The notes: generated from the letters alone by a model not told the origin. Shown: positions 19,989 through 31,527, numbered from the stretch's first letter. The stretch: 64,000 nucleotides of DNA from Oxalobacteraceae bacterium (GCA_023259175.1 JAHFQV010000007.1:278-64277); one strand, 5' to 3'. Numbers and translations: made by a program.

Positions 19989-21476
19989 TTATGCTCGTAA
20001 GAGCGCAAGGACACCTTGTGGTAAAGCGTTTGCTTGCGCCAAAATCGCTGTACCGGCTTGTTGTAAGACTTGTCCGCGAGTCAATGCTGCTGTTTCTGTA
20101 GCGAAGTCTGCATCACGGATACGGCTGCGCGAGGCGGTTAAATTTTCTGCACCGGTTTGCAAACTGATCACCGCTGATGAGAATCGGTTTTGATATGAAC
20201 CGAGATTCGCGCGTGAGGTATTGATTGTTTGCAGCGCCGCATCCAAGGTCGTGATCGCCGCCAGCGCACCAGCTGAGGTGCTTAAACTAAGTGAGGAGAC
20301 ACCTGCACCGACCGTCGTTGTCGCAGAGGTATAAGCACCCGTCAAGTTAGCTGCCGTCAAGCCAGTACCCGTACCATTGGCCAATGTGACACCGGCTGAA
20401 CTGGTTGAACTCAGCGTAAGCGTCGAGGTTGAGATGGTGGTGGTACCCGTCGCGGCTGTACCGATACCCGTTACAGCAGCACCCGCAGCAGTGTTGGTTG
20501 ATAAAGTAACGGTGACGTTACGACCATCGGCAGCACTCAAAGCCACCGCGCCAGTGGAGGTGCTAAATGTTGCCGTAACACCGGTTTGAGAGCTAATTGC
20601 ATTGACGGCGGCGGCCACTTGCGCACCGCGTTGTGCACCGGATGTTGATGCAGCCAATGCACCGAGATTGACACCGTTAATTGTGACATCACCTGAGGCA
20701 ATCGCGGTACCTGCGGTGGAGGCCGTACCGGTCACGGCAGTGGTGCCGACTGTGGCTGTTACACCGGAATTGCCACTGATAGCGTTGATGGCATTGGCTT
20801 TTGCGATACCGCTACCGGTTGAGTTTGAGAAGGACACGCCGTCAGCAGCTGAGGCACCAGTTTGATAGCCATTGATCGACAAATCACCGGCCGCTAAAGC
20901 GGTGGTAGTGACTGCGCCTGCGCCAGCGACCGTTGTAGAATAACTGGAGCCTGAACCTACACCCAAGGCTGCTGAGCGTGCGCTCGAGATGGAGGTGATG
21001 TTGATCGAATCGTTTGCCGTATTGTTGGCGCCGACTTGAAAGGCTTGTGAATTGAATGTGCCGTCGAGCAAATTGACACCGTTAAAGTTAGTGCTATTGG
21101 CAACACGGTCAATTTCAGCAATTAACTGGGTTGATTCTGTGTTGAGCGCTGCGCGGTCAGTTGCACTATTACTCGCATTCGAGGATTGCACAGCTAGGTC
21201 GCGGATACGTTGTAAGTTACTGGTGATTTGGCCCAATGCGCCCTCAGCGGTTTGCACCAGCGAGATACCATCATTAGCATTACGTACAGCTTGATTTAAG
21301 CCGCCGATTTGGGAGCTTAAACGTTCGGAGATCGCTAAACCAGCAGCATCATCTTTCGCACTATTGATGCGCAGACCTGAAGACAAACGTTGTAACGAAA
21401 GGTTCAGTTGGTTTTGCGATGTTGTTAAATTGCGCTGCGCATTAAGCGAGGCAATATTGGTGTTGATGACAGCCAT
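19989..21476 (-). CDS. fliC: Flagellin
   Basis: MAVINTNIASLNAQRNL, QRLSSGLRINSAKDDAAGLAIS, SRIRDADFATE, QAGTAILAQAN; TAAGGAG RBS. Confidence 0.98.
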   Translation of the reverse strand: MAVINTNIASLNAQRNLTTSQNQLNLSLQRLSSGLRINSAKDDAAGLAISERLSSQIGGLNQAVRNANDGISLVQTAEGALGQITSNLQRIRDLAVQSSNASNSATDRAALNTESTQLIAEIDRVANSTNFNGVNLLDGTFNSQAFQVGANNTANDSINITSISSARSAALGVGSGSSYSTTVAGAGAVTTTALAAGDLSINGYQTGASAADGVSFSNSTGSGIAKANAINAISGNSGVTATVGTTAVTGTASTAGTAIASGDVTINGVNLGALAASTSGAQRGAQVAAAVNAISSQTGVTATFSTSTGAVALSAADGRNVTVTLSTNTAAGAAVTGIGTAATGTTTISTSTLTLSSTSSAGVTLANGTGTGLTAANLTGAYTSATTTVGAGVSSLSLSTSAGALAAITTLDAALQTINTSRANLGSYQNRFSSAVISLQTGAENLTASRSRIRDADFATETAALTRGQVLQQAGTAILAQANALPQGVLALLRA

Positions 21477-21559
21477 GATAGGACTCCTTACTTAGATTTT
21501 CAGTGGGGCGATGTGCCTTAAACGTTGGCCTGTTTAATGCCGGACCGCCGTTGAATCAG

Positions 21560-21586
21560 GTAACGGACCACTCCTTAAAAAATTGA
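21560..21586 (-). promoter_or_regulatory. Candidate proximal sigma-28 promoter for fliC
   Basis: Minus strand TCAATTTT-N11-TCCGTTAC; correct spacing but degenerate boxes. Confidence 0.4.
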
Positions 21587-21643
21587 GAAAATCCTCGCAA
21601 ATAAATCTTGTTTTTTACTCTCAAGTTTTAATGCTCTTTCCGT

Positions 21644-21670
21644 TTTACGGCAAATTAAAAAAAAACTTAA
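21644..21670 (-). promoter_or_regulatory. Candidate distal sigma-28 promoter for fliC
   Basis: Minus strand TTAAGTTT-N11-GCCGTAAA; 7/8 and 6/8 match to consensus. Confidence 0.65.
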
Positions 21671-21866
21671 GGGGTGATTTAAGGAATAAATGCACTTCTT
21701 TTCGTCTTATGCGCTAGGCGTTTTTCCAATAACATGGAAATAAGTCCCCACAGCCTCTGAGTTTAGCGCGCTAAGCCTGTTGCGCTCTCGCCCATTTTAA
21801 TTGTGCTGCCTATCGGGAAGTGGTAAAACGTGAGTAGCGCGAACTTGCAAATGCAATGAGAGGCTA

Positions 21867-24074
21867 GTGATGGGTAAATCCAGTTTCAATTCAAGAGCTG
21901 CTTTACAAGACGCTAAGCGTTTGCATACTGCTGGGAATATGGAGGATGCTAAGGCGGTATGCTCACGCATCTTGCAACACTATCCTTTACATCAAGAGGC
22001 CTTGTATTTCTTGGCACGCTTATGCGCCGATATGGGCTTTTGGGATGAGGCTTTGCTTTATATACAAAAAGCTTTTTTGGTGAACTCAACAATGCCCGGT
22101 GAAAGATCGGGCTATTTTGCGATCCTGAATCACTACCTCGCTGATAAGCAATATCCCAAATTAGAACAAGCAAGCCGATGGTTGACCAGCCATCTTTCTA
22201 AGGATGGCATCGCTTGGGATTATTTAACGGTGAGCTTGTTGGAGCAGGGGCGCTACTTTGACGCGCTTGAGGCTGCACAAAAGGCAGTGAAGTTTTTGCC
22301 GACCAATGTCCATATTCAAAATAATTTAGCCTATGCGCTGATCGGCTTAGAGCGCTGCACGGAAGCGGCCGCTATTTTGCGAGTTGTTGTCCAGACTGAA
22401 CCGACGATGGCTTCGGCGCACAATAATTTAGGCAATGCTTTACGTTATAACGGCGACTACGAGGGGGCAATGAAGTGCTTTGAAGCGGCGATCGCGATTG
22501 CGCCTGAAACCGCCTATTTTTACAATAATCTAGGGCTCACTTACCGCTCTTTAGATCGCTATCAATCCTCGATAGATAGTTACCAAAAGGCTTTGCAAAT
22601 TCAGCCTGATTTGGTACAGGTGTATCCGAATTTGATTGATGTTTACCGGCAAGCAGGCATGGTACAACAAGCGATAGAATGTGGACAACATGCGCTAACG
22701 CTGACGCAAGAGTTGGCCGAAATTTGGGGCGCATTTGGCGATGCCTTGCGGGATGCTGGACAACTCGATGCCGCGATTGAATCGTATGTGAAGGCGGTGA
22801 GTTTTAAAACGGACAGTGAGTCTAGTTTTAATCGAAAAATATATACGAATATTTTGTTTTGCCTGAACTACCACCCCGACCTTGATGCCGAAACGATCTT
22901 TAGCGCATATCGTGAATTTGATCAGCGATTTGCACTGTCTCTGAAAAAGCATTGGCGGCCATTTAACACACCACGCGACACACAAAAGAAGCTGAAGGTG
23001 GGCTACCTTAGTCAGTCATTTTACAATCAGGTCTGCAAATTTTTCCTAATACCTTTGCTGGAAAAGCATGATCGTAGTCAGTTTGAGATTTACGCTTACG
23101 CCCAAATTCCTTACGAAGACGAAACGACCGCGCACTACAAGACCTTGGTTGACCATTGGGTTCCTATCCGCGAATTGATGGACGATCAAGTTGCTGAACG
23201 AATTCGTGCCGATGAAATTGATATTTTGGTGGACGTTTCGGGGCACACCAATTCCAATCGTTTGCTGGTGTTCGCGCAAAAACCAGCGCCAGTTTCTTTG
23301 CACTGGTTGGAATATGGCTACACCACCGGTTTAAGTGCAATCGATTATTTCATGACAGATCGGGCCAGTGTGACTGACGATTGTGGACATTTGTTTTCCG
23401 AGCAGATATGGATACTCGATAGTCCCGCCTATGTTTATCGTCCCGATACGCGACTCGCCATTCTCAACGACTCACCCGCTGTACGAAATGGCTATGTGAC
23501 TTTTGGCAGCTTGTCGCGTACTACCCGCATTAATCATCGAGTGGTACGTATTTGGGCCGCGATCCTTGATGCGGTGCCAGACTCGCATTTGATTATCAAT
23601 AGCGGCGATTTTAAAGACCCCAGAGTGCAAGACGAGATGGCTGCGCGGTTTATGCAATACGGCATTGCACGCTCTCGGCTAGAAATTAGTTTTAGCTCGC
23701 CCTCGTGGGAGGTGCTTAAACATGTCGATATTGGTCTCGATTGTTTCCCGCACAATTCGGGCACGACTTTATTGGAGACCCTTTTTATGGGGATCCCATT
23801 TGTAACGCTATTAGGTCGACCATCAGTGGGACGCATCGGTGCCAGCGTTTTGAGCGGTATGGGACGCACAGAATGGATAGCCAGTTCTGAAGAAGAATAT
23901 GCGCAAAAAGCCGTGATTTTGGCGCACGATTTAGAGGGCTTGCAGCACATGCGCCAATTCATGCGCGCTGAAATGCAAGCCTCTGCATTGATGGATGAAC
24001 CCGCTTTTGCACAGGCTGTGGAGCGGGCGTATCGGCAGATGTGGACACGCTATTGTGAAAGGAATGGGGCATGA
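21867..24074 (+). CDS. TPR + GT41 (OGT/SPINDLY-like) protein glycosyltransferase; putative flagellin glycosyltransferase
   Basis: Multiple TPRs ([27 protein letters not shown]), then [55 protein letters not shown]; divergent from fliC. Confidence 0.88.
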
Positions 24075-24841
24075 AAGCGGTGATCTTGGCGGGCGGCTTG
24101 GGAACGCGTATTTCTGAAGAAACGCATTTAAAACCCAAACCCATGATCGACATCGGAGGTCATCCGATTTTGTGGCACATCATGAAAAGTTATTCGGCGC
24201 ATGGCGTCAATGATTTCGTCATTTGTTGCGGCTATAAAGGCTATGTCATCAAAGAATATTTTGCGAATTATTTTTTGCATATGTCCGATGTGACTTTTGA
24301 TATGAGTAATAACCACATTGAGGTGCATGAACACCATGCGGAAGACTGGCGGGTGACCTTGGTGGATACCGGCGATGACACCATGACAGGGGGGCGTTTG
24401 CGTCGTGTCGCCGGCTATTTACAAGATGAGGACGCTTTTTGTTTTACCTATGGTGATGGTTTGTCGGATGTGGATATTCGTGCGCAGATTGCCTTTCATC
24501 GCGCCCACGGAAAATTGGCGACCGTGACCGCGGTGCTGCCACCGGGACGCTATGGTGCGCTCGATCGTGACGGTGATAGTGTCAAAGGATTTACCGAAAA
24601 GCCGCGCGGTGACGGTGGTTGGATTAACGGTGGCTTCTTTATTTTGTCACCGAAAGTGCTTGACCTCATTGCGGGCGATGCGACCAGTTGGGAAGCTGAG
24701 CCGCTGACCCAACTGGCGCGAAAAAACGAGTTGATGGCTTTTGAACATGCTGGTTTTTGGCAAGCGATGGATACACTACGTGAAAAAAATCTGCTAGAAG
24801 AACTTTGGCAAAGTGGGAGAGCGCCTTGGAAGCGTTGGTAG
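24071..24841 (+). CDS. rfbF: Glucose-1-phosphate cytidylyltransferase
   Basis: [47 protein letters not shown]. Confidence 0.96.
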
Positions 24842-25959
24842 AGCGTTTAAGCGCGAATCCCGATCCCGCTTTTTGGCGCGGTCGGCGGGTGGCCGTGACT
24901 GGGCATACGGGCTTTAAAGGCGCAATCCTAGTGCACTTCTTGTTACGTCTCGGTGCCAAGGTATCGGCCTTTTCTTTGGCACCTCATACCACACCAAATT
25001 TATTCGATGAGCTGGCATTACATCATCGTTGCGCGAGTCAAATCGGCGATCTGCGTGAGTTTGAGACGCTTAATAACTGGCTGCTCGAGTCTCAGCCTGA
25101 AGTTGTTTTTCACCTGGCGGCGCAAGCTTTGGTGCGGGAAAGTTATCGCCAGCCCGCTGCAACCATGAGCAGTAATTTTGTCGGGACATTACATTTGTTG
25201 GAAGCCTTGCGCCAGCAAAGTAGTGTCAAAGCCGTGGTCTGCGTGACGACCGATAAAGTTTATCGTCAAAGTGAAATTGCCCATGCATTTAGCGAAAATG
25301 ATGCCCTAGGTGGACACGATCCCTATAGCGCCAGTAAAGCCGCTTGTGAGATTTTGATTGAGTCCTATCGCTTAAGTTTCCTGCAGCATGCCAGTATCGC
25401 GACCGCGCGTGCGGGGAATGTGATTGGTGGCGGAGATTGGTCGGCTGAAAGGCTCTTGCCTGATGCAGTACGCGCTTGGCAGCTCGACGATGTGCTGGAA
25501 ATTCGTTCGCCAGATGCGATTCGTCCGTGGCAGCATGTGCTAGAGGCCTTGACTGCCTATTTGATTTTGGCTGAAAAATTATTTGCTTCGGAATGTGAGA
25601 GCCGTGCCTACAATTTTGGCCCCGATGCGCGAGATGCAGTCAGTGTGCGGCGAGTTTTGGACTTGGCGCGACAATATTTTGGTCGAGGTGAAATCGTAGA
25701 GCATTCTGATTTAGCGAGTTTCCATGAAGCGCAAGTGTTAATGCTCAATACCGATTTGGCGAGAACGCAATTGGGTATTGCGCCAAGGTGGACTTTAGAA
25801 ACGGCGGTTGCGCGCAGCATGCTCTGGTATCGTCAGTTTGCGCGGGGTGTTTCTGCAGCGCGTTTGTGTGATGAGGATATCGCAGCTTTTTTGTCGGATA
25901 CGCAAATCCATGAGCATGAGCAAGCCGGCATGCAAGCCAATGAGGTGCGCGATGGATAA
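24805..25959 (+). CDS. rfbG: CDP-glucose 4,6-dehydratase (start uncertain)
   Basis: [66 protein letters not shown]. Confidence 0.95.
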
Positions 25960-26515
25960 ATCCCTGCTCAGTAAGCCCACGTTTATCCGAGGTGTGGAAT
26001 TGCTTTGCCGCGTACAAAGACAGGATGAGCGCGGCTATTTTGAACGTCTGTATTCCAGCAGTATTTTGCAAACTTGTGGCTGGCAAGGAGGTATTGAACA
26101 AGTCAATCACAGCGTCACACTTGGCCTAGGCATTGTGCGCGGCATGCACTACCAAAAACCACCCTATGCCGAATACAAATTGGTCTCTTGTTTGCGGGGT
26201 GTGGCCTGGGATGTGGTGGTGGATTTGCGTGCTGACTCAGCTAGTTTTCTGCAAACGTTTGCGGTTGAACTTTCTGCAAAAAATGCGCAAGCCATTTTGA
26301 TACCGCCTGGTTGCGCACATGGATTTCAAGCCCTGAGTGCTGAGCTGGAATTGCTGTATTGCCATAGCGCGTCTTATCAAGCTCAATTTGAAGCAGGGGT
26401 GAATGCACTTGATCCACAATTGCATATCGCTTGGCCGCTGCCGATTGCGCAACGCTCGCCGCGTGATACCGACTTTGCGATGATCGCCGATGACTTTAAA
26501 GGAGTGTGGCTGTGA
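25952..26515 (+). CDS. NDP-4-keto-6-deoxyhexose 3,5-epimerase (RmlC/RfbC family)
   Basis: DERGYFERLY, QVNHS, VRGMHYQ, KLVSCLRG, DVVVDLR, IPPGCAHGFQAL. Confidence 0.9.
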   Translation: MDKSLLSKPTFIRGVELLCRVQRQDERGYFERLYSSSILQTCGWQGGIEQVNHSVTLGLGIVRGMHYQKPPYAEYKLVSCLRGVAWDVVVDLRADSASFLQTFAVELSAKNAQAILIPPGCAHGFQALSAELELLYCHSASYQAQFEAGVNALDPQLHIAWPLPIAQRSPRDTDFAMIADDFKGVWL

Positions 26516-27741
26516 AATGTCGACACTGCGCACAAGCTTTGCAATATTGCTGCCTCGATTTGGGCTGCGCTCCGCCATCCAATGCGTATTTAACGCCGGC
26601 GCAATTGCATGCGCCAGAATTGCATTTCCCCTTACGTTTATATGTGTGTGATGTTTGTTTTTTGGTGCAAACGGAAGACTTTGCCCAGCGTGAATTTTTG
26701 TTCGATCAGGACTACGCTTATTTCAGCTCGTTTTCTAGCAGTTGGTTAGCGCATGCGCATCGTTATGTGACGCAAATGCAGCAGCGTTTTGCATTGTCAG
26801 AAGAAAGCTATGTGTTGGAAATCGCCGCCAATGACGGCTACCTACTGCAATATGTCCAAGCGCTAGGAATCCCTTGTTGTGGGATAGAGCCGACCGCCAG
26901 CACTGCCGCCAGTGCGCGGGCAAAGGGGCTGCGTATTGTGGAAGGTTTTTGGGGGGAGGTCTTAGCAAATACCCTGCTCGAAGAAGGGCGACAAGCCGAT
27001 TTAATCGTCGCCAATAATGTGCTGGCGCATGTCCCCGACATCAATGACTTTGTGCGCGGCTGTGCCTCTTTTTTGAAGCCTGATGGGGTCGCAACTTTTG
27101 AATTTCCACATCTGCTTAATATGCTGCAATTGAATCAGTTTGACACTGCTTACCACGAACATTTTTCTTATTTTTCTTTGACCGCAGTCAAGCGTATTTT
27201 TGAAGCGAATGGTTTGACTATTTTTGATGTCGAGCATTTGCCAACTCACGGCGGTAGTTTGCGGGTATTTGCGCAGCGCTCGCAAAAGCCGCAAACACTT
27301 TGGCATAGCGAGCAAGTCGAAGCTTGTTTGACGCGTGAACGAGAGGCGGGTGTCGATCGCCTCAGTTTTTATGAACACTTTCAGCGTACCGCAGAAGCCG
27401 CTAAGAACGCATTGCTGAGCTATTTAATTGAGTGTCATTCACAAGGCTTACGGGTGGCGGCATACGGGGCTGCGGCGAAAGGAAATACGCTCCTGAATTT
27501 TGCTGGCATACGCAGCGATTTGTTGGCCTATGTGGTGGATAAAAATCCGTCCAAGCAAAACAAATTTTTACCTGGAAGCCGACTGCCAATTGTCGATATG
27601 GCGCATTTGATCGAAGATAGACCTGATCGAATTTTGATTTTGCCTTGGAATCTGGAACAAGAAATTAAACAGGAATTGATGCAGGTAATTACTTGGCCGG
27701 TACAGTTATTGACCGCCGTTCCGACCTTGACGCGTGTGTAG
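26512..27741 (+). CDS. SAM-dependent NDP-hexose 3-C-methyltransferase
   Basis: Zn ribbon CRHC...CDVCFLVQ, EIAANDGYLL, NNVLAHVPD, YHEHFSYFS, C-terminal AAYGAAAKGNTLLNF; AAAGGAG RBS before GTG 26512. Confidence 0.88.
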   Translation: MKCRHCAQALQYCCLDLGCAPPSNAYLTPAQLHAPELHFPLRLYVCDVCFLVQTEDFAQREFLFDQDYAYFSSFSSSWLAHAHRYVTQMQQRFALSEESYVLEIAANDGYLLQYVQALGIPCCGIEPTASTAASARAKGLRIVEGFWGEVLANTLLEEGRQADLIVANNVLAHVPDINDFVRGCASFLKPDGVATFEFPHLLNMLQLNQFDTAYHEHFSYFSLTAVKRIFEANGLTIFDVEHLPTHGGSLRVFAQRSQKPQTLWHSEQVEACLTREREAGVDRLSFYEHFQRTAEAAKNALLSYLIECHSQGLRVAAYGAAAKGNTLLNFAGIRSDLLAYVVDKNPSKQNKFLPGSRLPIVDMAHLIEDRPDRILILPWNLEQEIKQELMQVITWPVQLLTAVPTLTRV

Positions 27742-27756
27742 ATAGAGGGGGTTAGT

Positions 27757-28245
27757 ATGATAGAAATTCATCCGGATGCAAAAATTTCGCGTTGGGCGGA
27801 TATCGAGGACTCGGTGCGTGGTTCGCGGATTGTGGTCGGTGCTGGGTCTAGCATTGATAGCTTCGTTAAAGTCAAACCAGCCGGTGGCAGCGGTGATTTA
27901 ATCATTGGCGATCGCACTGTGATTAATTCTGGCTGTGTGTTTTATACGGGGAATGGCATTCATATTGGCAATGACGTGGCGATTGCAGCCAATTGTTGTT
28001 TTGCACCCGTCAATCATGCCTATGCCGATAAAAATACGCGTATCAATCAGCAGGGGTTTCTGCCCAGCCGAGGCGGTATCATCATCGAAGACGATGTTTG
28101 GATTGCGGCGAATTGCGTGATACTGGATGGTGCGATTTTGCGACGTGGTTGTGTGGTGGGCGCGGGCTCTCTGGTGCGCAGAGAGTTGGAAGCTTATTCG
28201 ATTCATGTTGGTAATCCTTTGCGCTTAATCGGGTGGCGAAAATGA
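27757..28245 (+). CDS. Hexapeptide-repeat (left-handed beta helix) acyltransferase
   Basis: LIIGDRTVINSGC, IHIGNDVAIAANC, IIIEDDVWIAANCVILDG, VVGAGSLV, VGNP. Confidence 0.88.
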   Translation: MIEIHPDAKISRWADIEDSVRGSRIVVGAGSSIDSFVKVKPAGGSGDLIIGDRTVINSGCVFYTGNGIHIGNDVAIAANCCFAPVNHAYADKNTRINQQGFLPSRGGIIIEDDVWIAANCVILDGAILRRGCVVGAGSLVRRELEAYSIHVGNPLRLIGWRK

Positions 28246-29066
28246 ATACTTCAGTGCAAGCGACGATTGTCGGTGGACGTGGATTTATCGGGCGACATTT
28301 GGCGCATGCGCTACGTGTCCAAGGTTGGCAGGTGGATGTGGCAAAACGCCAGGATGCAAAACTCTTTGCCCAAGAACTCGGACATGTTTTCTATTGTGCG
28401 GGTTTGACCGCCGATTTTCGGCAAAACCCATATGCGACCGTGGATGCACACGTCACCATGTTAGCTAATTTATTGGAGTATTCGAGCTTTACCAGCCTCA
28501 GTTATTTATCGAGCACACGGGTGTATGCGGAGGCGAGTAGTACCGAGGAGAGCGCTGCATTGCGCACCCGCCCTGAGGTGCCAGATCATTTGTATAATTT
28601 ATCCAAACTGATGGGGGAGAGTTTGTGCTTGCAAAGTGGTCGTGATGTGCGCATCGTGCGACTGTCCAATGTGTATGGTCGTGGTATGCCGCAACAGAAT
28701 TTTTTGCAAGCCGTTTTGAGCGAAGCCTACGCACAAAAAAGTGTGCGCTTTTTAAGTGCCGCTAGCTCGAGTAAAGACTATATTTCGATTGAGGACGTAG
28801 TCCGCGCTATTCCGCACATCGCTTTAAATGGACGCAAGGATATTTATAATTTGGCGCAAGGGACCAATACCAGTCACCAAGAAATTGCTGATTGGTTGAG
28901 TGCGCAAGGTATCGTTTGCAGTTTTGCGCAGGATGCACCGGTAACCTGTTTTCCCGTGATTGATATGCGTAAAACCAGCAGCCTGTGCGGTGCTGCACAG
29001 TCGAATTTATTGCAGGATTTAGCGCCACTTTTTCAGGCGATCAATAATTTAGATGAGGCTCTATGA
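28242..29066 (+). CDS. NAD(P)-dependent sugar epimerase/reductase (extended SDR); probable 4-ketoreductase
   Basis: GGRGFIG Rossmann motif, YLSSTRVY, YNLSK (YxxxK), RLSNVYG. Confidence 0.82.
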   Translation: MNTSVQATIVGGRGFIGRHLAHALRVQGWQVDVAKRQDAKLFAQELGHVFYCAGLTADFRQNPYATVDAHVTMLANLLEYSSFTSLSYLSSTRVYAEASSTEESAALRTRPEVPDHLYNLSKLMGESLCLQSGRDVRIVRLSNVYGRGMPQQNFLQAVLSEAYAQKSVRFLSAASSSKDYISIEDVVRAIPHIALNGRKDIYNLAQGTNTSHQEIADWLSAQGIVCSFAQDAPVTCFPVIDMRKTSSLCGAAQSNLLQDLAPLFQAINNLDEAL

Positions 29067-29812
29067 ATCCCATAGCACAATTTGAAGCCGAGCGCGAAGA
29101 ACGTATTGCGCAACTGGGTCAAGACACCGCATTTCAGGCGCAATCCCGTTCATGGTTAGAACAGAGTATGCGTAAGCAATATGTGTATAATTTTTCGTGG
29201 CTGGGACGACCGATTATTCAAAATCCGATCGATATGGTCGCGATGCAGGAATTGATTTGGCGTGTGCAACCGGATTTGATTATCGAAACAGGCATTGCGC
29301 ATGGTGGATCGATTATTTTTTCTGCATCCATGCTGGAACTCAATGCTGCATGCGGAGGTAATCCCGAGGCGCAAGTGATCGGTATCGATATCGATATTCG
29401 GGAACATAATCGACTCGCTATTTTGACGCATCCTATGGCCAAACGCATACGTATGGTGCAAGGTTCGAGCGTGGCGCCTGAAGTAGTGGCGCAAGTGCAG
29501 GAAGCTGCGCAAGGGCGGAGCAGGATCATGGTGTTTTTAGACTCTAATCATACCCACGAACATGTACTGGCCGAGCTAAATGCCTACGCGCCTTTGGTGA
29601 GTGTGGGCAGTTATTGCGTGGTCTTCGATACCTTTGTCGAGGATGTGCCTGCGGACGTTTTTGAACAGCGCCCTTGGGCTCCCGGTAATAGCCCTAAGAC
29701 GGCGGTGCATGCTTATCTCGAGGCGAATCGGCAATTTGAAATCGATCAGAGCATGCATCATAAACTGCAAATTACGGTGGCACCGGATGGGTTTTTGCGG
29801 CGTATTTTTTAG
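29063..29812 (+). CDS. CmcI/cephalosporin-hydroxylase family protein, probable sugar O-methyltransferase
   Basis: YNFSWLGRPIIQ, QPDLIIETGIAHGGS, FLDSNHTHEHVLAEL, SVGSYCVVFDT. Confidence 0.85.
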   Translation: MNPIAQFEAEREERIAQLGQDTAFQAQSRSWLEQSMRKQYVYNFSWLGRPIIQNPIDMVAMQELIWRVQPDLIIETGIAHGGSIIFSASMLELNAACGGNPEAQVIGIDIDIREHNRLAILTHPMAKRIRMVQGSSVAPEVVAQVQEAAQGRSRIMVFLDSNHTHEHVLAELNAYAPLVSVGSYCVVFDTFVEDVPADVFEQRPWAPGNSPKTAVHAYLEANRQFEIDQSMHHKLQITVAPDGFLRRIF

Positions 29813-29813
29813 T

Positions 29814-29868
29814 GTTTTAGGAGCGAGTTTTAGGGCGCCAGCTTTAGGGTGTCAGCTTTAGGGTGCCA
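29814..29868. repeat. Four tandem degenerate 13-14 bp repeats, consensus GYTTTAGGGYGYCA
   Basis: gttttaggagcga / gttttagggcgcca / gctttagggtgtca / gctttagggtgcca fill the gap between convergent stop codons. Confidence 0.85.
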
Positions 29869-29871
29869 TGC

Positions 29872-31527
29872 TTACGGAGCTATCACGACACGATTTTTGC
29901 CACTGCGCTTGGCTTCGTACATGGCTTGATCTGCGCGTTTGATTAAGGTATTTTGATCTTCTTTTGCACCACGTAAGGCGATACCCGCACTAAAGGTGAT
30001 GAAGATGCGTTTATCGTCCACAGTAAAGAAATGCGTCGTGAGTTCGCGTTGGACGCGAGTCATGGCGCGTGCGGCTTCTTCTAAAGTTGTTTCTGGCATG
30101 AGTATGATAAATTCTTCTCCACCATAGCGGGCGATGACATCAATTGAGCGCAAGGTTTGTTTGACGATGCGCACGACATGAATCAGTGCTTCGTCGCCAG
30201 AAGCGTGGCCGTGGGTGTCGTTGAGTTTTTTAAAATTATCGAGATCAAGCATGGCGATGCACAGTGGCGAATTGCGCCGATCCGAACGATCCGCTTCACG
30301 TTCAAAAATTTCATCTAAGCCGCGCCGATTAAGACTGCCCGTGAGCTGATCTTCGCGCACCAGTTCGCTCATTTCTTCTAGTTTCGCTTCTAATTCTTTA
30401 ATCCGTGTTTCAGCTTCTTTCACTTCCTTTTGCGCCGCCAGCATGATTTGATGCGAGCGCATCGTTTCACTATGAATAGTTTGTGTTTCGTTCAAAATGG
30501 CGAGAATGATTTTCTCCACGGCCAAGGCATCGCGGGTCTCGCGAATCTGTTGGGAAAATTCGTCGATTTTGAATTGATAGGCACTCGTCGTATTGGCCAT
30601 GACATCGAGTCTATCGATGAAGGTCGCCATCATATTTTTGACGGAACTGCGCGAATCATCCAGACTCGATTTGAGTGTACCCTGTTTGTAGATCACATCT
30701 TTGAGGCTGCGCGTGGCCTCCTGCAATAGGCGATGGTCAATCGGACCGGCAATTAAATTTTGAATGACGATAATTTGACCACGCAACCAATTGTCTTCTT
30801 CGAGAAGATCATGCACATTGTTTAGCAGCAGTGAAAATAGTCGTAGCAAAAGCTCTTGCTGTTCGGCGGTGTCGCCACCGACCAGTTCGATTTGAAAACA
30901 GAGTTGTTTAACCCGCGAGGCGACTTGTTTAAACTCGGGTTCGCTCACGGCGAATTTAAGTTTGTCTGCAATCGCTTCTGACTCTGTCGCAAGTGTCGGT
31001 TTTTCTTTCAGTAAGGACGATAAAGCCATGCCCAGTGTGCGAAAAAGTGCGTCCTTCAGATGCGTTTCTTTGCTATGGCTAGGATCGAAATCATCGACTA
31101 AAGAAACCCGCGTAGCGCTAGTTGCATTGGCCGGTGGCGGGTCGACTAAGCTGATGCTATTGGATAAATTTGGGTTGACTTTGTTGAGCGTTTTGTCGGC
31201 GAGCTCGCGCAAAACTTTTGCGTATTCTTCCCAATTTTTACTCGATAAGGATCGTTGCAATCGGTGTCCAAAATTGATTAAATCGCCGCTGGATTTTTGT
31301 AAGTGATTTGCGAACGTAGTAAGCAAATTTTCTGCTTCTGACGGCGTTGGTATTTCGGGTTGGGTGTTCTTGATTTCAGACGCGTCGGGGATGCCTGCGA
31401 TTTCGTTATACGCTTTTTGATAAGCCTCTGGTGTTGGGGCAATCCGCTCAATCGCCAAGCGCTTAAAAGTATCGCGCGCAATATCGGTGGGACTCTTGGT
31501 CGAAGGGGGTAGACGTTTGTCCGACAT
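29872..31527 (-). CDS. Cytoplasmic diguanylate cyclase (long helical N-terminus + GGDEF)
   Basis: DQLTGSLNRRG, LDLDNFKKLNDTHGHASGD, RSID (I-site RxxD), RYGGEEF, AMYEAKRSGKNRV. Confidence 0.93.
   Translation of the reverse strand: MSDKRLPPSTKSPTDIARDTFKRLAIERIAPTPEAYQKAYNEIAGIPDASEIKNTQPEIPTPSEAENLLTTFANHLQKSSGDLINFGHRLQRSLSSKNWEEYAKVLRELADKTLNKVNPNLSNSISLVDPPPANATSATRVSLVDDFDPSHSKETHLKDALFRTLGMALSSLLKEKPTLATESEAIADKLKFAVSEPEFKQVASRVKQLCFQIELVGGDTAEQQELLLRLFSLLLNNVHDLLEEDNWLRGQIIVIQNLIAGPIDHRLLQEATRSLKDVIYKQGTLKSSLDDSRSSVKNMMATFIDRLDVMANTTSAYQFKIDEFSQQIRETRDALAVEKIILAILNETQTIHSETMRSHQIMLAAQKEVKEAETRIKELEAKLEEMSELVREDQLTGSLNRRGLDEIFEREADRSDRRNSPLCIAMLDLDNFKKLNDTHGHASGDEALIHVVRIVKQTLRSIDVIARYGGEEFIILMPETTLEEAARAMTRVQRELTTHFFTVDDKRIFITFSAGIALRGAKEDQNTLIKRADQAMYEAKRSGKNRVVIAP

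Follow-up and report, generated by a model that had tools for sequence, protein, structure and literature searches.

A CDP-sugar gene cassette next to a flagellin gene, predicted to supply a C-methyl, O-methyl, O-acetyl sugar for the flagellum

Seven genes located beside a flagellin gene in a freshwater Undibacterium (Oxalobacteraceae) very probably direct the synthesis of a rare C-methyl, O-methyl, O-acetyl sugar for the flagellum, as judged from sequence. The window analysed is a 64,000 nt stretch of DNA (GCA_023259175.1, JAHFQV010000007.1:278–64277), and positions are counted from its first letter. Together with the gene for a TPR-containing GT41 glycosyltransferase that precedes them, the seven genes are likely to form a single operon within a flagellin glycosylation island, an estimate that takes in the proposed route and the vinelose-type product set out below. 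The window holds one further member of a widespread, uncharacterized cassette; among characterized pathways, that encoded by the CDP-cereose/cillose operon in Bacillus cereus comes closest.

Results

Gene content and organization

An initial annotation had placed at 24071–29812 a cytidylyltransferase, a 4,6-dehydratase, a 3,5-epimerase, a 3-C-methyltransferase, an acyltransferase, an SDR reductase and a CmcI-type methyltransferase. This set was recovered as seven intact ORFs on the same strand (Table 1), from the ATG at 24071 to the stop at 29812, with no internal stops or frameshifts in any of the seven. The genes are translationally coupled in the order rfbF–rfbG–epimerase–C-methyltransferase–acetyltransferase–SDR–CmcI. 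Start and stop codons overlap as ATGA or GTGA at 24071, 26512, 28242 and 29063, the first of these being the 4 nt overlap (ATGA) of the GT41 stop with the rfbF start, and the rfbG stop overlaps the epimerase ATG by 8 nt at 25952; overlaps at these five junctions indicate a single operon. A gap of 15 nt lies ahead of the acetyltransferase gene at 27757. Some automatic ORF starts were too long; the epimerase gene probably begins at 25952, the C-methyltransferase gene at 26512 and the SDR gene at 28242, where its ATG overlaps the stop of the acetyltransferase gene. The start of rfbG can be placed only within 24805–24835, with candidate TTG codons at 24805, 24826 and 24835.

Table 1. Features of the flagellin gene and the adjacent operon within the window
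Feature	Position	Strand	Profile evidence
Flagellin, 495 aa, presumed acceptor	19989–21476	-	PF00669 + PF00700; NF009448, 407 bits
TPR + GT41 glycosyltransferase, 735 aa; presumed flagellin O-glycosyltransferase, first operon gene	21867–24074	+	PF13844, 137 bits; many TPR families
rfbF, glucose-1-phosphate cytidylyltransferase	24071–24841	+	TIGR02623 equivalog, 466 bits (cut-off 300)
rfbG, CDP-glucose 4,6-dehydratase	24805–25959 (start uncertain)	+	TIGR02622 equivalog, 427 bits (cut-off 278)
RmlC-like cupin epimerase (3,5- or 5-epimerase of CDP-4-keto sugar)	25952–26515	+	PF00908, 164 bits
NDP-hexose C-methyltransferase, TylC3/TcaB9/KijD1 type	26512–27741	+	PF08421 + PF13489 + PF08484
Left-handed beta-helix (LbH) O-acetyltransferase, 162 aa	27757–28245	+	PF00132
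Short extended-SDR, presumed CDP-4-keto sugar 4-reductase	28242–29066	+	PF01370, 91 bits
CmcI/rhamnosyl O-methyltransferase family, presumed sugar 2-O-methyltransferase	29063–29812	+	PF04989, 317 bits

Counterpart in Azotobacter vinelandii

For over 50 years CDP-vinelose (CDP-6-deoxy-3-C-methyl-2-O-methyl-L-talose) has to our knowledge stood as an orphan metabolite, lacking an assigned gene, pathway or biological destination. The compound and its 4-O-(O-methylglycolyl) ester were reportedly obtained from A. vinelandii by Okuda, Suzuki and Suzuki (J Biol Chem 1967/68). The initial annotation had proposed that the operon could be the blueprint for a CDP-vinelose-type donor and that an orthologous cluster be sought in A. 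vinelandii. Such a cluster is present and lends support to the proposal: in strain NBRC 13581, which may differ from the strain that yielded CDP-vinelose, all seven genes are found, colinear and with 47–77 % identity (contig G001:C55, locus L088), and the cassette adjoins a TPR-GT41-GT2 gene and a flagellin gene. The draft assembly of this strain contains a sole TIGR02623 match above the cut-off and a sole PF08484 match, both within the operon; with its single cytidylyltransferase and single C-methyltransferase located there, the CDP-linked C-methyl sugar of A. vinelandii has no other evident route.

As predicted, the window product is like CDP-vinelose in its CDP activation, 6-deoxy sugar, C-methyl branch, one O-methyl and O-acyl group. 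The A. vinelandii set differs in carrying extra genes, absent from the window, for a PhyH-type dioxygenase and a TylF-type O-methyltransferase, which could convert the acetyl ester to the O-methylglycolyl ester of acylated CDP-vinelose. Lacking both, the window is predicted to specify a plain O-acetyl sugar.

CDP-sugar entry enzymes and epimerase

Both RfbF and RfbG exceed their NCBIfam equivalog cut-offs, and they are 77 and 50 % identical, respectively, to the A. vinelandii orthologs. The PDB relatives of the epimerase are RmlC, NovW, ChmJ and EvaD, and its motif residues (the His of RGMHYQ, the Lys of KLV, a Tyr and an Asp) are kept, as judged by eye. Assignment as the RmlC equivalog, dTDP-4-dehydrorhamnose 3,5-epimerase, was rejected on a TIGR01221 score of 124.5 bits against a cut-off of 155.75, while membership of the PF00908 family stands; a score of this kind is expected for a CDP-sugar enzyme.

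Tailoring enzymes

The acetyltransferase belongs to the hexapeptide-repeat family, with weak matches of the WcaF/WbbJ/Vat/LacA type, and in the PDB it is related to galactoside and maltose O-acetyltransferases (6e-14). The SDR is weakly similar to RmlD and GDP-6-deoxy-mannose reductase, with the motifs GGRGFIG (GxxGxxG), SST and YNLSK (YxxxK) intact. The PF04989 match of the CmcI-family protein is full length (model positions 2–206 of 206), and the CmcI structure is matched at 2e-5. A sugar O-methyltransferase role, which had been put forward as new for the CmcI family, is already implied by the Pfam name of PF04989, ‘Rhamnosyl O-methyltransferase/CmcI’. The protein is not the mycobacterial rhamnosyl O-methyltransferase itself (NF045824 equivalog, 94 bits against a cut-off of 400), being of the same family but another enzyme.

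Either or both of the acetyltransferase and the CmcI-type methyltransferase may act only once the sugar has been transferred, modifying the sugar on flagellin or the protein itself rather than the CDP-sugar, although we regard this as unlikely. Many LbH O-acetyltransferases modify finished glycans, and the characterized sugar enzyme of the CmcI family, the mycobacterial one that gives PF04989 and NF045824 their name, methylates a rhamnosyl residue that has already been transferred. However, the 2-O-methyl sugar and the 4-O-acyl ester of A. vinelandii were reportedly both isolated as CDP derivatives, and the window proteins share 60 % (CmcI family) and 71 % (acetyltransferase) identity with their A. 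vinelandii counterparts.

C-methyltransferase and position of the branch

The C-methyltransferase gene is the only PF08484 gene in the source genome. Its product has a three-part architecture (PF08421, 63 bits; SAM domain PF13489, 71 bits; PF08484, 182 bits), with PDB matches to KijD1 (2e-67), MtmC (2e-62) and TcaB9 (8e-61), and identity to the actinomycete enzymes, estimated from alignments, is about 30–40 %. A Cys4 zinc site (CxxC...CxxC) aligns with the cysteines of TcaB9 and KijD1. The active site of TcaB9, which we take to be Tyr76, Asn177, His181, Tyr222, Glu224 and His225 (PDB chain offset +2), is identical at every residue in a phmmer alignment to 3ndi: the Tyr lies in DYAYFSS, the Asn and His in ANNVLAH, and the remaining residues in Y-H-E-H versus Y-D-E-H.

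A CDP-linked 6-deoxyhexose with C-methyl, O-methyl and O-acetyl groups, the same general product, would not be vinelose-like if its branch were at C5, as in the noviose or C-1027 type, or if the configuration at C3, C4 or C5 were another one. This outcome appears rather improbable. C5-methyltransferases share the Pfam architecture, and SgcA3 of the C-1027 cluster, a C5-type enzyme, is 32 % identical along the full length; one of the best PDB matches to the RmlC-like protein (1e-26) is NovW, which serves as epimerase in the noviose pathway. Additionally, the SDR (47 %) and the epimerase (49 %) are the proteins least conserved with respect to A. vinelandii, and since these two set the stereochemistry, the Undibacterium product may be an epimer; as the initial annotation correctly noted, sequence does not reveal stereochemistry. 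Against this, the C-methyltransferase is 65 % identical to its A. vinelandii ortholog and 46 % identical to a B. cereus-group homolog in the rfbF–rfbG–C-methyltransferase operon of B. thuringiensis, conservation extends to the residues investigated in the 3-C-methyltransferase TcaB9, and the entire gene order is common to the window and A. vinelandii. The contrast of 46 with 32 %, from a comparison that took in the B. thuringiensis homolog and SgcA3, is no more than suggestive of methylation at C3 rather than C5.

GT41 glycosyltransferase and flagellin

The flagellin and GT41 genes are divergent and separated by 390 nt, and residues 151–400 of the flagellin are 34 % Ser/Thr. GT41 orthologs (49–65 % identity) lie upstream of rfbF in three genomes of the same genus, and the FliC–GT41–rfbF...CmcI arrangement is kept there and at loci L095, L102 and L105. 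The cassette adjoins GT41 and flagellin genes in both A. vinelandii and A. chroococcum, and in 12 of 18 genome loci the C-methyltransferase gene has a GT41 gene no more than 10 kb away. Glycosyltransferase and sugar-nucleotide genes that adjoin fliC and are conserved with it mark a flagellin glycosylation island, and we infer that flagellin is the acceptor of the sugar. Known donors of GT41 enzymes are UDP-GlcNAc, UDP-Glc and GDP-fucose; we know of no GT41 enzyme for which a CDP-sugar donor has been demonstrated. A 3-C-methyl sugar was not found in any flagellin glycan in the literature searched.

A polysaccharide destination for the sugar (O-antigen, capsule or EPS), with the location of the operon next to fliC a matter of chance, is very unlikely. 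In its favour, cassettes sharing the rfbF–rfbG–epimerase–C-methyltransferase core are also found with neither a GT41 nor a flagellin gene close by (loci L094, L097, L099, L103 and L104, and a Desulfolutivibrio plasmid on which the core lies next to GT2 genes), and 3-C-methyl-rhamnose is a known O-antigen sugar (PMC7203242). Against it, the GT41 gene of the window overlaps rfbF; no Wzx/Wzy, ABC exporter or initiating transferase was found within the operon by ORF and profile searches; the operon is flanked on one side by flagellar genes, among them fliC, fliD and fliS, and on the other by a GGDEF gene; and the joint FliC, GT41 and cassette arrangement is conserved in three genomes of the genus and recurs in A. 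vinelandii.

Discussion

Proposed route and product

The route proposed for the flagellar sugar rests on family assignments, from which its steps, their order, regiochemistry and stereochemistry are inferred. RfbF would form CDP-D-glucose from CTP and Glc-1-P, and RfbG would convert this to CDP-4-keto-6-deoxy-D-glucose. The TcaB9-type enzyme would then methylate C3 via a 3,4-enolate with SAM as donor, and the RmlC-like enzyme would invert C5 (or both C3 and C5, should it precede the methyltransferase) to give an L-sugar. Reduction of the 4-keto group by the SDR would be followed by O-methylation by the CmcI-family enzyme, probably at O-2, and O-acetylation by the LbH enzyme, probably at O-4. 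The predicted product is the O-acetyl ester of a vinelose-type CDP-6-deoxy-3-C-methyl-2-O-methyl-L-hexose. Finally, the TPR-GT41 protein would move the sugar from CDP onto Ser/Thr residues of the exposed central domain in flagellin, with a predicted residue mass of 216.10 Da (174.09 Da without acetyl).

Comparison with known systems

The initial interpretation, although supported in its CDP-vinelose-type inference, had missed the closest characterized precedent. In B. cereus ATCC 14579, BC3358–61 (Cyt, Deh, Cmt, Red) are reportedly the operon for CDP-cereose and CDP-cillose (Li et al. 2017, J Biol Chem 292:7636). This is the characterized CDP-based route to 3-C-methyl-6-deoxyhexoses for a surface protein, and the window shares its first three enzyme families. 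The order of these three genes is also that of a plasmid operon of B. thuringiensis, a member of the B. cereus group, the proteins of which are 59 (RfbF), 40 (RfbG) and 46 % (C-methyltransferase) identical to those of the window. The cereose operon differs in having no RmlC-like epimerase, O-methyltransferase or acetyltransferase, and thus yields D-series, untailored sugars; its acceptor is reportedly a spore collagen-like protein, whereas that of the window is presumed to be flagellin. The reductases are unrelated, with no tblastn match between the window SDR and the reductase of the Bacillus operon.

Pathways of the dTDP-L-mycarose, D-tetronitrose and D-kijanose type share the C-methyltransferase fold and active-site residues (TylC3/EryBIII, TcaB9, KijD1, MtmC). 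The actinomycete pathways are also alike in logic, with a 4-keto intermediate, C3 methylation, C5 epimerization (TylK/EvaD) and 4-reduction (TylC2), but they use a thymidine rather than a cytidine carrier, act on 2-deoxy or 3-amino sugar substrates and serve secondary metabolites.

Likewise, in GT41 flagellin glycosylation islands a TPR glycosyltransferase gene and sugar-nucleotide genes adjoin fliC. A survey of such islands in Enterobacteriaceae describes GT41 families and, in four strains, a CDP-4-keto-6-deoxy-glucose island type (De Maayer and Cowan 2016, PMC4875605); a branched-chain sugar or C-methyltransferase is not discussed there. The TPR-containing flagellin glycosyltransferase FlmG of Caulobacter transfers pseudaminic acid (PMC7591256).

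A possibly modular cassette

The genes for the PhyH-type dioxygenase and the TylF-type O-methyltransferase are added to the cassette in A. vinelandii, one Undibacterium species, and Acidovorax and Achromobacter relatives. A tentative extension, somewhat short of an even chance on the gene evidence, is that the cassette is the CDP-vinelose gene set, that the destination of the sugar is O-glycosylation of flagellin by a CDP-sugar-using TPR-GT41 enzyme, and that the cassette is modular. Strains with LbH alone, as in the window, would form the O-acetyl ester, whereas in those adding PhyH and TylF the acetyl group would be hydroxylated and then methylated to the O-methylglycolyl ester. We know of no precedent for acyl hydroxylation and methylation on a nucleotide sugar.

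Distribution and implications

The cassette is found in approximately 10 % of the genomes sampled in the bacterial family of the source and on many plasmids, and its genes are labelled in public records merely as ‘class I SAM-dependent methyltransferase’ and similar. If the proposal is correct, this widespread cassette would gain a functional annotation, and its enzymes would supply CDP-sugar-active catalysts for glycodiversification. A branched-chain, doubly tailored sugar would join the known flagellin glycans, and the GT41 family would have its first CDP-sugar donor. CDP-vinelose, reported as a nucleotide sugar in the 1960s, would thereby acquire both genes and a destination.

Gene content of the operon

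The seven-enzyme set proposed in the initial annotation for positions 24071–29812 is confirmed in full: seven same-strand ORFs, free of internal stops, match the expected families (see table). Three of the ORF calls were too long at the 5′ end and, from a reading of the junctions, their starts were reset to 25952, 26512 and 28242; an AAAGGAG motif precedes the GTG of the C-methyltransferase. Start and stop codons overlap as ATGA or GTGA at 24071, 26512, 28242 and 29063, and by 8 nt at 25952. Given that the GT41 glycosyltransferase gene runs into the rfbF start in the same manner, the unit comprises eight genes. A promoter and terminator scan of 21400–30000 returned sites no more numerous than in shuffled sequence, and it is the gene overlaps alone that argue for a single operon. 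Composition gives no indication of recent transfer (GC 0.49–0.51 in the operon against 0.47–0.50 in the surroundings). In the genome of the window there is only one PF08484 gene and only one true rfbF.

Features of the operon and its flank, with supporting matches
Feature	Position	Strand	Evidence
Flagellin gene	19989–21476	-	divergent from the eight-gene unit
TPR + GT41 glycosyltransferase gene	21867–24074		stop codon overlaps rfbF start
rfbF, Glc-1-P cytidylyltransferase	within 24071–29812		TIGR02623, 466 bits (cut-off 300)
rfbG, CDP-glucose 4,6-dehydratase	within 24071–29812		TIGR02622, 427 bits (cut-off 278)
RmlC-like cupin epimerase	start ATG 25952		PF00908, 164 bits; under the dTDP-RmlC equivalog cut-off
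Sugar C-methyltransferase	start GTG 26512		PF08421 zinc domain, SAM domain and PF08484
Hexapeptide-repeat acetyltransferase	within 24071–29812		PF00132; closest solved structures are galactoside and maltose O-acetyltransferases
Extended SDR, 275 aa	start ATG 28242		PF01370; motifs GGRGFIG, SST, YNLSK
PF04989 methyltransferase (CmcI-type)	within 24071–29812		317 bits, full model covered

The C-methyltransferase aligns with the solved sugar 3-C-methyltransferases KijD1 (2e-67), MtmC (2e-62) and TcaB9 (8e-61). The four zinc cysteines are kept, as are a Tyr, an Asn, a His and a Tyr-x-Glu-His, positions which we take to be those of the TcaB9 active site. SgcA3, the C5-type methyltransferase from the C-1027 cluster, shares no more than 32 % identity with it, which suggests methylation at C3 rather than C5. 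The closest named homologs of the enzyme come from Undibacterium species (64–69 % identity). One further match (P0004), from the ‘Candidatus Aquirickettsiella gammari’ MAG, is 69 % identical to the window protein, about as near as the neighbouring Undibacterium matches, and the MAG contig carrying it may be Undibacterium contamination.

A sugar O-methyltransferase role for the CmcI family, put forward initially as new, is already established, PF04989 bearing the Pfam name ‘Rhamnosyl O-methyltransferase/CmcI’. Alignment to the CmcI structure is a weak match (27 bits) that stops before the metal-binding residues could be scored. The mycobacterial rhamnosyl O-methyltransferase targets O-2 of an L-rhamnosyl residue, and the local geometry at O-2 of 6-deoxy-L-talose matches that of the L-rhamnosyl O-2.

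The colinear cassette of Azotobacter vinelandii

A CDP-linked 3-C-methyl hexose, vinelose, was reportedly obtained from A. vinelandii by Okuda, Suzuki and Suzuki. The genome searched was that of strain NBRC 13581, located through a 55-residue NifD N-terminal peptide with a 100 % match. With the window C-methyltransferase as query there is one match (65–66 % identity), and the 20 kb around it (L088) contain all seven cassette genes, ordered as in the window. Identities to the window proteins are 77 % for rfbF, 50 % for rfbG, 49 % for the epimerase, 65 % for the C-methyltransferase, 71 % for the acetyltransferase, 47 % for the SDR and 60 % for the CmcI-type enzyme. The search for an orthologous A. 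vinelandii cluster suggested in the initial annotation was thus run and successful: seven genes, one order, 47–77 % identity. On the 3′ side lie a convergent 1257-aa TPR-GT41-GT2 fusion protein and then flagellin; on the upstream side are a FliA-like sigma factor, a PilZ-HD protein and a UDP-glucose dehydrogenase. No paper linking A. vinelandii flagellin to glycosylation was found.

Both the sole above-cut-off Glc-1-P cytidylyltransferase and the sole PF08484 methyltransferase of A. vinelandii NBRC 13581 are within this operon. With one enzyme of each kind, the operon is the only evident route to a CDP-linked 3-C-methyl hexose, if the species makes such a sugar. Among the arguments that the cassette may be the vinelose pathway this is the strongest, and the proposal of a CDP-vinelose-type donor operon is supported by a colinear cluster holding the genome's only such enzymes. 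In the literature searched, ‘vinelose’ and ‘O-methylglycolyl’ returned no paper, ‘3-C-methyl-2-O-methyl’ matched solely an unrelated mycobacterial sugar, and no paper tying the seven-gene cassette to vinelose was found.

The A. chroococcum DSM 2286 locus (L089) comprises rfbF, rfbG, the epimerase, the C-methyltransferase, a 293-aa gene, a second, divergent C-methyltransferase paralog (25–27 % identity) and a CmcI-type gene, followed by a GT41 protein of 1209 aa and flagellin. Orthologs of the acetyltransferase and the SDR are absent from this cassette.

A PhyH–TylF extension

Two further genes extend the operon in A. vinelandii (L088:14158–15815); they encode a PhyH-family Fe(II)/2-oxoglutarate dioxygenase and an O-methyltransferase of the TylF family. 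The HxD...H triad is invariant in the PhyH-type family, and an Arg is conserved. The acylated form of CDP-vinelose in A. vinelandii is reported to be the 4-O-(O-methylglycolyl) ester. Such an ester would arise from an acetyl ester by hydroxylation and then O-methylation, and the left-handed beta-helix (LbH) acetyltransferase, the PhyH-type hydroxylase and the TylF-type O-methyltransferase would be exactly the enzymes this chemistry requires. The pair could convert the O-acetyl ester of CDP-vinelose into its O-methylglycolyl ester.

The PhyH-type subfamily is rare (178 clusters in 5.8 billion proteins); an ortholog occurs in none of 401 class-level sampled genomes, and A. vinelandii is its sole carrier among 201 Pseudomonadaceae. 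Of the metagenome loci (L106–L121), 15 could be assessed, having sufficient flanking sequence and a PhyH ortholog that is 66 % or more identical. TylF directly follows PhyH in all 15, with the LbH, CmcI-type, SDR and C-methyltransferase genes in the same operon. Two gene orders are found at PhyH loci, in one of which LbH has moved directly before the pair to form an LbH-PhyH-TylF block. The pair also stands after the CmcI gene in one same-genus Undibacterium genome (L093, 5710–7243). These context data are consistent with acyl tailoring by PhyH and TylF. Remoter PhyH-like genes (34–50 % identity) lie in C-methyltransferase/CmcI cassettes lacking LbH or TylF, so the family may have other targets on such sugars.

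Cassettes with PhyH and TylF are in a minority of genomes. Both genes are absent from the window operon, where a GGDEF gene is next after CmcI, and the window product is thus predicted to be a plain O-acetyl ester. Among named organisms, the PhyH-type gene of A. vinelandii has its nearest relatives in Burkholderiales (Simplicispira, Acidovorax, Achromobacter; 69–77 % identity, P0129–P0157). Horizontal transfer has probably carried the extended cassette between this order and Azotobacter.

Distribution and variation

A close C-methyltransferase ortholog is present in 20 of 200 genomes of the window's family (17 of 64 genera; three of six in the genus). Across 18 genome loci the constant core is rfbF-rfbG-epimerase-C-methyltransferase, the last two in either order, and the tailoring genes vary. 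GT41 lies within 10 kb at 12 of these loci, and flagellin was detected at 8 or more. Cassette loci in public records carry generic annotation. Plasmid records with a C-methyltransferase homolog number 154 (Sinorhizobium pSymB-type replicons, Brachyspira, the Bacillus cereus group, Desulfolutivibrio). The homolog on ~32 kb plasmids of the pig pathogen Brachyspira hyodysenteriae (H10–H14) is 48 % identical, which implies that the surface glycans of this species contain a branched-chain sugar.

Compared with the three same-genus genomes (L091, L092, L093), the window is well conserved in rfbF (80–84 %), LbH (77–79 %), CmcI (79–83 %) and flagellin (64–85 %), and less so in rfbG (51–55 %), the epimerase (49–51 %), the C-methyltransferase (62–64 %) and the SDR (57–58 %). 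For these last four, same-genus genes are no nearer to those of the window than the A. vinelandii genes are. Such mosaic conservation suggests recombination or gene replacement inside the operon.

Flagellar surroundings

Past the flagellin gene lie fliD, fliS, a YcgR-like brake, fliF, fliG, fliI and fliK. Ser and Thr make up 34 % of residues 151–400, the middle part of the flagellin. Whereas the window has one TPR-GT41 gene 5′ of rfbF, three same-family loci (L101, L102, L105) have two or three tandem paralogs, which suggests multi-sugar or multi-site flagellin glycosylation in some relatives. On the 3′ side of the operon the convergent GGDEF gene is found 59–60 nt beyond the CmcI-type stop. 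This gap contains no canonical terminator; a ~14-nt unit (TTTAGGGYGYCAGC-like) is present there in three tandem copies (29820–29870).

Comparison with characterised systems and predicted product

The closest characterised system is a four-gene operon, Cyt-Deh-Cmt-Red, of B. cereus ATCC 14579, which according to Li et al. in 2017 reportedly makes CDP-3-C-methyl-6-deoxy-gulose and -allose (cereose and cillose) for the spore surface. Later papers attest to the existence of the two CDP pathways. A B. thuringiensis plasmid operon has the same rfbF-rfbG-C-methyltransferase order, with identities to the respective window proteins of 59, 40 and 46 %; it lacks an epimerase and any homolog of the window SDR, and the window pathway thus diverges after the first three steps, which are common to both. 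An epimerase, a different reductase, O-methylation and O-acetylation are added on the window side, and the epimerase would lead to an L-series sugar.

A published catalogue of flagellin glycosylation islands includes some with GT41 enzymes, and one island type in it has CDP-4-keto-6-deoxyglucose genes (PMC4875605). Searches combining flagellin with CDP-glucose, C-methyltransferase or 3-C-methyl sugar returned no relevant paper. As a kind of system, a flagellin glycosylation island that contains a branched-chain NDP-sugar pathway is already known; the seven-gene variant is uncharacterised.

An amino sugar as product was considered and rejected, there being no aminotransferase in the operon and the nearest relatives of the acetyltransferase being O-acetyltransferases. 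The operon very probably makes a CDP-activated, C-methylated, O-methylated and O-acetylated 6-deoxyhexose. Flagellin is the likely acceptor, and the chances are about even that the configuration of the product is exactly that of vinelose. The cassette offers a direct test for an old orphan metabolite, vinelose, and raises the possibility of a GT41 enzyme with a CDP-sugar donor.
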